The position numbers and the translations under genes were made by a program. A stretch of 64,000 nucleotides of DNA from Escherichia phage Pu-Krd-SF1. The notes beneath the pieces are model-generated. The model did not search any database. It worked only from the letters and a program-made list of their open reading frames with translations, and was not told where the DNA came from. Below are positions 3,584-4,463 of this stretch, one piece after another. The stretch lies in sequence record PQ249395; one strand, given 5' to 3'. Each line of letters begins with the position of its first letter. The first letter of the stretch is position 1.

Positions 3584-4129
3584 ATGAGAAAAGCACTACT
3601 CGCTGGTCTATTGGCCATTTCAATGATGGCACATAGCTCCGAGCATACTTTCAGTAATGTCCAACTCGATAACATGCGTTACGCGTATCAATTCGGGGAA
3701 CAATTTTCTAAGGATGGAAAATATAAAACACACAAAAATATCCACAAGAGCGGATTAGGTCATATAATGGCTGCTATTTTATGGCAAGAAAGCTCTGCCG
3801 GAGTTAATTTAAAATCTAAACCAAAGCATCATGCCTACGGAATGTTCCAAAACTATTTGCCGACCATGCGTGCAAGAGTTAAGGAACTTGGTTATAATAT
3901 GACCGATGCCGAAATAAAAAGAATGTTGAATAAACGGTCCAATTCAGCTTCCTGGGCGTACATTGAACTTTCTTATTGGTTAAATATACATAAGGGAGAT
4001 ATAAGAAAGGCAATATCCTCTTATAATTCGGGATGGAATGTTAAAGCAGGTTCTAAATATGCTTCTGAAGTCCTAGAAAAGGCTAACTACCTTAAAAATA
4101 ATAAACTGTTGGAAATAGTAAATGACTAA
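3584..4129 (+). CDS. Secreted lytic-transglycosylase-like (SLT-domain) protein
   Basis: N-terminal signal peptide MRKALLAGLLAISMMAHS; SLT-like motifs LWQESSAG, YGMFQN, SYNSGW. Confidence 0.6.
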   Translation: MRKALLAGLLAISMMAHSSEHTFSNVQLDNMRYAYQFGEQFSKDGKYKTHKNIHKSGLGHIMAAILWQESSAGVNLKSKPKHHAYGMFQNYLPTMRARVKELGYNMTDAEIKRMLNKRSNSASWAYIELSYWLNIHKGDIRKAISSYNSGWNVKAGSKYASEVLEKANYLKNNKLLEIVND

Positions 4130-4463
4130 AATTTTGGTTTTATGTGTAGGATTAATTTCATTTTCTGCGTTAGCAGATATATCATATTCTGAAGTTAGAG
4201 AGTATGTAAACCGTACTGCCGCGGATTATTGTGGGAAAAATAAAGCATGCCAAGCTGAATTTGCGCAGAAATTAATATATGCATATAAAGACGGAGAAAG
4301 AGATAAATCAAGCAGATACAAGAACGATACTTTATTAAAACGATATGCTAAAAAGTGGAATACCTTAGAATGTTCAGTTGCGGAGGAGAAAGATAAAGCC
4401 GCTTGTCATTCAATGGTTGACCGTTTAGTAGATTCTTATAATCGAGGATTGAGTACTAGATGA
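4122..4463 (+). CDS. Hypothetical secreted protein
   Basis: 113 aa, signal peptide MTKILVLCVGLISFSALA, four Cys; start overlaps upstream gene. Confidence 0.55.
   Translation: MTKILVLCVGLISFSALADISYSEVREYVNRTAADYCGKNKACQAEFAQKLIYAYKDGERDKSSRYKNDTLLKRYAKKWNTLECSVAEEKDKAACHSMVDRLVDSYNRGLSTR

Follow-up and report, generated by a model that had tools for sequence, protein, structure and literature searches.

Predicted export of Vs.1, a GH23-like enzyme, and of Vs, annotated as a valyl-tRNA synthetase modifier, in a T4-type phage

INTRODUCTION

Classical biochemistry of phage T4 described a factor that binds the cytoplasmic valyl-tRNA synthetase (ValRS) of the host and changes its properties. Pairs of an inhibitor and its enzyme are exemplified by T4 Sp with the gp5 lysozyme, by Ivy or PliG with lysozymes and by Tsi3 with Tse3. 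The exclusion (Imm, Sp) and lysis (E, T, spanins, RI) functions of T4 have already been assigned to genes and, to our knowledge, T4 has no lysis cassette. The E-S, G-x-x-Q and Y-N-x-G motifs, with Glu being catalytic, are what we take to define family-1 lytic transglycosylases, and family GH23 takes in true lysozymes and a chitinase too.

The T4 genes vs.1 and vs (NP_049725 and NP_049724 in NC_000866) are already known. The similarity of vs.1 to SLT has been in print since 2006, in a paper (PMC1524935) that refers back to older PSI-BLAST results, and some GenBank records label Vs.1 an SLT-domain protein. Vs carries the label 'valyl-tRNA synthetase modifier' in essentially all records; according to a 2025 transposon-sequencing preprint (HIDEN-SEQ), the biological role of ValRS modification by T4 has been unknown for decades. 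Both genes belong to the early RNA class of T4 and both proteins have been detected (PMC9697503 supplement), which bears out the suggestion, made from the window sequence alone, that the two proteins are made early. In the searchable literature we found no paper on the activity or location of Vs.1 and none on the localisation of Vs.

Here, we analyze the vs.1–vs locus of Escherichia phage Pu-Krd-SF1 within a window of 64,000 nucleotides (PQ249395). The explanation that we favour, at a probability of about one half, is that the two gene products form a conserved module in the periplasm, where Vs.1 remodels the cell wall of the infected host with Vs as its helper or modulator.

RESULTS

The vs.1–vs locus

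The phage represented by the window is of the T4 type (Tequatrovirus). The 2-kb region around vs.1–vs matches Escherichia phage Pu-Krd-SF5 with 100% identity and hundreds of Tequatrovirus records with ~96–98%. The sequence-only reading had placed two consecutive signal-peptide proteins, one of them SLT-like, beside regB, and the open reading frames are found at those coordinates. The main elements of the region are as follows.

3058..3087, + strand: putative T4 early-type promoter upstream of regB (GTTTAC, 18-nt spacer, TATAAT; 10/12 in a consensus scan)
3115..3576, + strand: regB endoribonuclease gene (Pfam REGB_T4, E 1.4e-68; product 152/153 identical to T4 RegB)
3584..4129, + strand: vs.1, predicted periplasmic GH23/SLT lytic transglycosylase precursor, 181 aa
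4122..4463, + strand: vs, predicted exported four-Cys helical protein precursor, 113 aa (PHROG 1256, E 3.7e-39)

The first of the two reading frames corresponds to T4 vs.1 (180/181 residues identical) and the second to T4 vs (108/115), the differences in Vs being confined to residues 9–27, that is, to the signal peptide and the first mature residues. The names follow from the gene order, which in annotated relatives (ime09) and in T4 runs regB, vs.1, vs, tk.4, tk.3, tk.2, (tk.1), tk, rI.1, rI. The sequence-only reading overlooked these T4 names, the published SLT match and the annotation as valyl-tRNA synthetase modifier. As written, it re-found two catalogued genes together with a published domain match and added little; the real oddity lies in the predicted location of Vs versus its annotated ValRS function. 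What also retains interest is the strict conservation of a run of secreted proteins, vs.1–vs, with or without a third member.

The first gene of the unit, regB, lies directly upstream of vs.1 and has GGAG in its Shine-Dalgarno region (3105–3108). A scan between the early-type promoter and the end of vs found no terminator-like site and, judging from the sequence, the putative promoter probably drives a regB–vs.1–vs transcript. The stop of vs.1 and the start of vs overlap by 8 nt, and the vs stop overlaps the tk.4 start (ATGA).

Vs.1 is a candidate GH23 enzyme

Vs.1 matches Pfam SLT (PF01464) with 23.4 bits (E 4.8e-5), just over the gathering cut-off of 21.3 bits, and its catalytic motifs are intact, so the proposed SLT-like nature of the first protein is upheld. 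In an alignment of 29 homologues (41–83% identity), 27 of the 29 match SLT (E <= 0.01; best 1.3e-7) and no other family. The three motifs are located in the window as follows.

3788..3793, + strand: E69-S70 codons, predicted catalytic Glu-Ser motif of the family (29 homologues: E69 invariant, S70 conserved in 90% or more)
3839..3850, + strand: G86-M-F-Q89 codons, 'GLMQ' motif (G86, F88 and Q89 invariant in 29 homologues)
4022..4033, + strand: Y147-N-S-G150 codons, 'AYNxG' motif (Y147, N148 and G150 invariant in 29 homologues)

The AF2 model of Vs.1 is confident (pLDDT 88.8) and displays an all-helical fold of the goose-type-lysozyme kind. MltD and Slt are its top Foldseek matches, and the nearest structures are lytic transglycosylases and goose-type lysozyme, at a sequence identity of just 13–20%; a sequence-profile search of the PDB with Vs.1 returned nothing significant among solved structures. 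Outside its own family, the domains that Vs.1 matches in PHROG are those of lytic tail proteins or endolysins, and a search of NCBIfam gave no match for either Vs.1 or Vs. We have confidence in Vs.1 being a GH23 enzyme that is exported by Sec and whose active site is intact, and we infer that its chemistry is that of a lytic transglycosylase.

Both proteins have signal-like N-termini

Signal peptides were judged by a rule-based heuristic, which looks for a positive n-region, an uncharged hydrophobic h-region of ~10–15 residues and small residues at -3/-1. Both proteins proved positive, as had been proposed for them from the sequence.

3584..3637, + strand: predicted Sec signal peptide of Vs.1, residues 1–18, MRKALLAGLLAISMMAHS, before SEHTF (rule-based n/h/c analysis)
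4122..4175, + strand: predicted Sec signal peptide of Vs, residues 1–18, MTKILVLCVGLISFSALA, before DISYSE (rule-based n/h/c analysis)

In Vs.1, MRK is followed by ALLAGLLAISMM, with the uncharged hydrophobic core LLAGLLAISMM, and by AHS, with the cut predicted before SE; the mature form would begin with SEHTFSNVQLDNMR and comprise 163 aa (18.8 kDa, pI 9.65). The signal peptide of Vs is more typical than that of Vs.1 and consists of MTK, ILVLCVGLISFS and ALA, with the cut predicted before DI and a mature form of 95 aa (11.0 kDa, pI 8.87); for T4 Vs, the predicted mature N-terminus is DTSYTEIR.

The heuristic is positive in just 7 of the 113 likely genes of the window, including those for the known periplasmic proteins Sp (45297–45590) and RI (6164–6457, 1.7 kb downstream), and at this frequency two neighbouring positives are not rare by chance in one genome. 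The weight of the export case comes instead from conservation, because the two genes are adjacent in 50/50 related loci and the signal-like N-termini are retained in nearly all of them. Indeed, such an N-terminus, variable in sequence, is present in 29/29 aligned Vs.1 homologues, and among the related loci Vs.1 deviates in only three, in which the automatic procedure had called the wrong ORF start. Similarly, the N-terminal sequence of Vs homologues varies, with the n/h/c architecture being retained in nearly all, including every full-length member, and in four loci (L032, L033, L036 and L049) the N-terminus of Vs carries a lipobox, ...ALSGC, as in a lipoprotein. Exceptions across the 50 loci are few and correspond to a miscalled ORF start or a disrupted gene. 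On reading the sequence, no leaderless in-frame start for vs is evident. The further claim that exported proteins outside the lysis cassette are unusual does not apply to T4: with Sp and RI encoded in the same window, an exported protein is not unusual here in itself.

Vs is a small family with conserved cysteines

Vs belongs to its named family by its match to PHROG 1256, and PF26829 is assigned to all close homologues in precomputed tables. The second protein had been described as secreted and Cys-containing, and besides its signal peptide it does have conserved cysteines, four of them in the predicted mature part (C37, C43, C84 and C95) and one more in the signal peptide.

4230..4250, + strand: C37...C43 codons, C-x5-C loop between predicted helices 1 and 2 (both Cys invariant in 21 divergent members)
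4371..4406, + strand: C84...C95 codons, loop between predicted helices 3 and 4 (C95 invariant; C84 conserved, offset in the 21-member alignment)

The only invariant positions in the alignment of 21 members, which reaches down to 19% identity, are the initiator Met, C37, C43, C95, G58 and G109. In the divergent Vs subfamily all four Cys are invariant, and 47/50 related loci encode the four mature Cys, the remaining three Vs copies being truncated or frameshifted. The family is small, with 6 clusters in a word-indexed search. An exhaustive HMMER search with Vs for distant relatives beyond T4-like phages, against 1.84 billion representatives, gave 8 matches, all of them small phage-type proteins or fragments. 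When tblastn was run with divergent Vs, members were found in T4-like phages of Escherichia, Klebsiella, Enterobacter, Serratia, Proteus, Acinetobacter and Pseudomonas, mostly annotated as 'valyl-tRNA synthetase modifier'.

The AF2 model of Vs, built from 7 sequences, is poor (pLDDT 61). It has four helices, with the Cys pairs flanking both hairpin loops, and the helix boundaries given above are taken from this low-confidence model. Foldseek against the PDB detected no fold relatives of the model above noise (best E 0.84), a profile search among solved structures found nothing significant (centrin and other matches were noise), and Vs gave no match above noise to Pfam inhibitor families. The poor model and the lack of fold relatives count against a periplasmic module. 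A relationship of Vs to RI (BLASTP E 0.49; hhalign probability 1.3%) or to Sp (hhalign probability 2%) was considered and rejected, the hhalign values being for the 21-member Vs profile. More generally, no sequence or profile similarity was found between Vs and the periplasmic inhibitors Sp, Ivy, MliC/PliC and PliG.

The name 'valyl-tRNA synthetase modifier' itself speaks against a periplasmic role. The main rival to the periplasmic module is the classical one, in which Vs is a cytoplasmic tau factor that binds host ValRS, its hydrophobic N-terminus either does not serve export or has some other purpose, Vs.1 is an unrelated periplasmic enzyme and the adjacency of the two genes reflects synteny. 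This is a possible explanation, to which we give distinctly less than even odds. It has in its favour the nearly universal annotation and the 1970s biochemistry on ValRS binding by the T4 factor, as cited in PMC8076793. Several properties of Vs are at odds with it: the signal peptides, with short h-regions and small residues at -3/-1, occur family-wide; the lipobox of four loci makes no sense in a cytoplasmic protein; invariance of Cys and Gly only, across 21 members, is the mark of a disulfide-stabilised secreted fold rather than of a conserved surface for binding a host enzyme that is itself highly conserved; and vs has no evident leaderless in-frame start. A variable leader of constant architecture, lipobox variants and invariant residues limited to Cys and Gly are what would be expected of a secreted, disulfide-stabilised protein. 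In our confident view, members of the Vs family resemble exported proteins in their sequence properties, and this pattern does not sit easily with a protein that has to meet ValRS in the cytoplasm. Full-length Vs with an N-terminal His tag was insoluble and formed inclusion bodies in the cytoplasm, as reported in PMC8076793, and this behaviour fits an exported protein. In silico, Vs is not predicted to have the cytoplasmic location that would be compatible with meeting ValRS, which lowers confidence in its named function and not in its membership of the family by sequence.

Linkage of vs.1 and vs across relatives

A search of IMG/VR with the Vs.1 alignment yielded 50 loci, the Vs.1 homologues of which are 43–100% identical. 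In 50/50, a Vs-family open reading frame starts at -8 to +7 nt from the Vs.1 stop, one of the copies being frameshifted. Since regB is upstream of vs.1 in 48/50 loci, the region is syntenic in general, and gene order conserved so widely here tells against reading a module into the linkage. Two Acinetobacter-type loci have no regB, tk.4 or tk nearby and retain the vs.1–vs pair; the genes after it encode one more secreted protein, a small membrane protein and the rI antiholin.

The uninterrupted run of envelope genes that ends at rI in these Acinetobacter-type relatives, and the position of rI 1.7 kb downstream in the window, suit a role of Vs.1, with or without Vs, in superinfection exclusion, in resistance to lysis from without or in accessory lysis, as do early expression and the predicted periplasmic location. 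Superinfection exclusion had been raised in the sequence-only reading. We consider this set of roles improbable, given that in T4 the exclusion and lysis roles are held by other known genes and that the fitness effect in the published data (see below) depends on the medium and appears in single-round competitive growth, which exclusion does not predict.

In 20/50 loci, a third signal-peptide protein (phrog_4957) directly follows Vs. The more divergent Vs type occurs in precisely these 20, and no copy of the third gene is present in the window. The two Vs types do not track Vs.1 identity. The full Vs alignment contains no segment of sufficient conservation to serve as a query; a locus search starting from the divergent Vs subfamily returned essentially the same contigs as the Vs.1 search and is not an independent test of the linkage.

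The mean pairwise divergence is 0.59 for Vs, the fastest of the three proteins, 0.41 for RegB and 0.33 for Vs.1. In a mirror-tree test, the partial r between Vs.1 and Vs was 0.085 after controlling for RegB as a proxy of phylogeny; thus, this test gave no signal of Vs.1–Vs co-evolution beyond shared phylogeny, while the Vs.1–RegB correlation stays strong. This result favours the classical ValRS explanation and weighs against the periplasmic module.

It also weighs against an arrangement in which Vs acts in the periplasm as an inhibitor of, or immunity protein to, Vs.1, such that loss of Vs leaves an unrestrained Vs.1 that harms the phage. Such a pair is suggested by a muralytic enzyme and a small secreted protein being strictly adjacent and translationally coupled, and T4 already has one inhibitor of this type, Sp, within the window. 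Taking into account that neither Sp nor the Pfam inhibitor families resemble Vs at the profile level, we find the inhibitor idea unlikely, and the transposon counts described next point the same way.

Published fitness data for T4

In the HIDEN-SEQ preprint, T4 vs.1 and vs are non-essential, vs is the gene most depleted in M9 glucose versus LB, and deletion of vs results in poor plaques, on M9 only. The published values for vs, vs.1 and nearby genes are as follows.

vs: mean reads 26.6 in LB and 5.0 in M9; log2FC -2.19; adjusted p 0
vs.1: mean reads 22.6 in LB and 11.9 in M9; log2FC -0.87; p 0.0055, adjusted 0.155
regB: mean reads 179 in LB and 403 in M9; log2FC +1.17; not significant
tk.4: mean reads 290 in LB and 275 in M9; log2FC -0.07; not significant
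vs.3: mean reads 652 in LB and 626 in M9; log2FC -0.06; not significant
tk.3: mean reads 767 in LB and 754 in M9; log2FC -0.03; not significant

Already in LB, transposon reads in vs and vs.1 are roughly 7–30-fold below those in neighbouring genes (179–767). Either the same fitness trait depends on both genes, or the overlapping vs suffers polar effects from insertions in vs.1. The low vs.1 reads may thus be mere polarity, which counts against the module, and polarity on vs can account for the vs.1 insertion effects under the classical ValRS explanation. The plaque defect of the vs deletion is specific to minimal medium, where amino-acid and tRNA charging are limiting, and this specificity, together with the log2FC of -2.19 for vs, suits a role in translation at least as well as one in the periplasm.

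Depletion of vs.1 insertions argues against Vs as a mere antidote because a pure antidote predicts that vs.1 insertions are neutral, polar or not; they are not neutral, with LB reads of 22.6 against 26.6 for vs, and lower still in M9. The genetic signature of an inhibitor, in which loss of the enzyme is neutral or suppressing, is therefore not what is seen for vs.1 and vs, polarity being a caveat to this comparison. Overall, the published transposon counts disfavour Vs as a pure antidote of Vs.1.

DISCUSSION

A candidate periplasmic module

If Vs.1 and Vs form a periplasmic module, the early promoter would probably give a joint regB–vs.1–vs transcript, and the 8-nt overlap may couple the translation of vs.1 and vs. 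The Vs.1 pre-protein would be exported by Sec and cleaved after Ala-His-Ser18 to yield a soluble, basic periplasmic enzyme of 18.8 kDa, in which Glu69, as the only acid/base catalyst, would cleave peptidoglycan at the MurNAc-GlcNAc bond and leave 1,6-anhydroMurNAc ends. Vs would likewise be exported and, after cleavage behind Ala-Leu-Ala18, would give a mature protein of 11 kDa, a helical bundle probably held by two disulfides formed in the periplasm. Together, the two proteins would constitute a conserved envelope module of T4-like phages, followed in many other genera by a third secreted protein. Such a module may act on the cell wall of the host from the early stage of infection, with Vs being a targeting or modulating accessory rather than a mere antidote. 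The export and cleavage of both proteins, as well as the disulfides of Vs, are predictions from sequence features, and we infer the cooperation of Vs with Vs.1 and the biological purpose of the module.

A bolder proposal, which we make tentatively and hold to be doubtful in its full form, is that Vs is not a cytoplasmic translation factor at all. It would be secreted, sometimes lipid-anchored, disulfide-bonded and periplasmic, working with Vs.1 and, in many genera, with the third protein; its link to ValRS would then stem either from mis-assignment of the open reading frame to locus vs or from an association formed after cell breakage.

If Vs is periplasmic, the textbook annotation in about a thousand phage records is wrong, and T4-like phages carry a conserved, early and fitness-relevant cell-wall module. 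If Vs is cytoplasmic, it presents an unusual case in which a signal-like sequence does not serve export.

Comparison with known systems

The window locus closely corresponds to vs.1–vs of phage T4, with the same genes, the same order (regB–vs.1–vs–tk.4) and the same overlaps. Compared with T4 Vs, the signal peptide of the window Vs is 2 residues shorter and there are a few substitutions within residues 9–27; from residue 28 on, the mature domain is identical.

Among cellular enzymes, Vs.1 can be compared with the GH23 family-1 members Slt70, MltC and MltE of E. coli, Slt, MltF and MltD of P. aeruginosa, and EtgA, to which it is 13–20% identical. Unlike these bacterial transglycosylases, it is predicted to be a soluble single-domain protein of 163 aa, without a lipid anchor, LysM or superhelical domain, and its N-terminal part holds ~40 additional residues, conserved among T4-like phages only. 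Moreover, it is phage-encoded and expressed early.

For Vs, the closest parallels are found in T4 itself. Sp (spackle), the periplasmic inhibitor of the gp5 tail lysozyme, resembles Vs in being small, early and Cys-containing and in having a cleavable signal peptide, and it sets an example of a muralytic enzyme being modulated by a small T4 protein that is secreted; it shares no detectable sequence or profile similarity with Vs (hhalign probability 2%). The RI antiholin (PF24205) is, like Vs, small and secreted with a C-x5-C loop, and in the Acinetobacter-type relatives it is encoded almost contiguously with the vs.1–vs pair.

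A third predicted secreted protein and variation in Vs

Directly after Vs, 20 of the 50 IMG/VR loci with a Vs.1 homologue encode a phrog_4957 protein of ~140 aa with a predicted signal peptide, which is found across many T4-like genera and for which tblastn gave no match in the window. The predicted mature N-terminus of this protein reads W-E/D-x-L/V-x-G-Y-P, and wherever the protein occurs among the 50 loci, the divergent Vs type is always present as well. Representatives are located as follows:

L046 3857-4303, phrog_4957 protein
L047 3842-4267, phrog_4957 protein
L048 3812-4231, phrog_4957 protein
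L050 3873-4313, phrog_4957 protein

In L047 and L048, regB, tk.4 and tk are absent nearby, and vs.1 is followed by vs, the phrog_4957 gene, a gene for a small membrane protein (phrog_6298) and that of the rI antiholin, so that the envelope genes from vs.1 to rI form a single unbroken run (L047 2992-4859; L048 2989-4804).

The Vs type is incongruent with the relatedness of Vs.1, as seen when loci L010-L014 are compared with L016-L031: Vs is only 30-31% identical to that of the window in loci where Vs.1 is at 71-75%, whereas it reaches 46-56% in loci where Vs.1 is at 66-72%. This mismatch suggests that Vs alleles were replaced or that Vs evolution accelerated in particular lineages.

Furthermore, four Vs homologues share the N-terminus MKKLFVLLVV(F/V)ALSGC with a canonical lipobox, and the ‘valyl-tRNA synthetase modifier’ of these phages is a predicted lipoprotein:

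L032 3549-3875, Vs homologue with lipobox
L033 2495-2821, Vs homologue with lipobox
L036 3549-3875, Vs homologue with lipobox
L049 3549-3875, Vs homologue with lipobox

Other predicted exported proteins and a vs.6-type ORF

Elsewhere in the window, the following genes were recorded, of which the phrog_1754 product contains additional Cys residues and is likewise a predicted lipoprotein:

38866-39246, +, phrog_1754 protein, 126 aa, N-terminus MKIAILVIALGLAGC, lipobox LAGC
45297-45590, +, Sp (spackle), a periplasmic protein that passes the rule-based signal/anchor heuristic (phrog_1586, E 1.9e-46)
12380-12787 and 23224-23439, +, two other small ORFs passing the same heuristic (phrog_2547, phrog_1930)
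1935-2297, +, 120-aa ORF

In its C-terminal part, the 120-aa ORF resembles pyruvate formate-lyase or NrdD at their glycyl-radical end. In phage ime09 this ORF carries the annotation vs.6 ‘pyruvate formate-lyase’, and the Gly_radical match of vs.6 has already been recorded (PMC1524935).

Transcript features and the downstream gene tk.4

GGAG, the RegB cleavage motif according to a note in the T4 record, is present in the Shine-Dalgarno region of regB in the window; vs.1, vs and tk.4 lack it in their ribosome-binding regions. A terminator-like hairpin lies 16 nt past the vs stop, just within the 5' end of tk.4, the gene immediately 3' of vs, and might attenuate the regB-vs.1-vs transcript:

3105-3108, +, GGAG of regB
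4479-4497, +, hairpin, AGGGCGATATTGTCGCCCT then T-rich tail
4460-4939, +, tk.4, macro-domain protein (Pfam Macro, E 1.1e-7)

The T4 counterpart Tk.4, named ‘AdfM’, is required for resistance to the DarTG2 defence system (2025 preprint).
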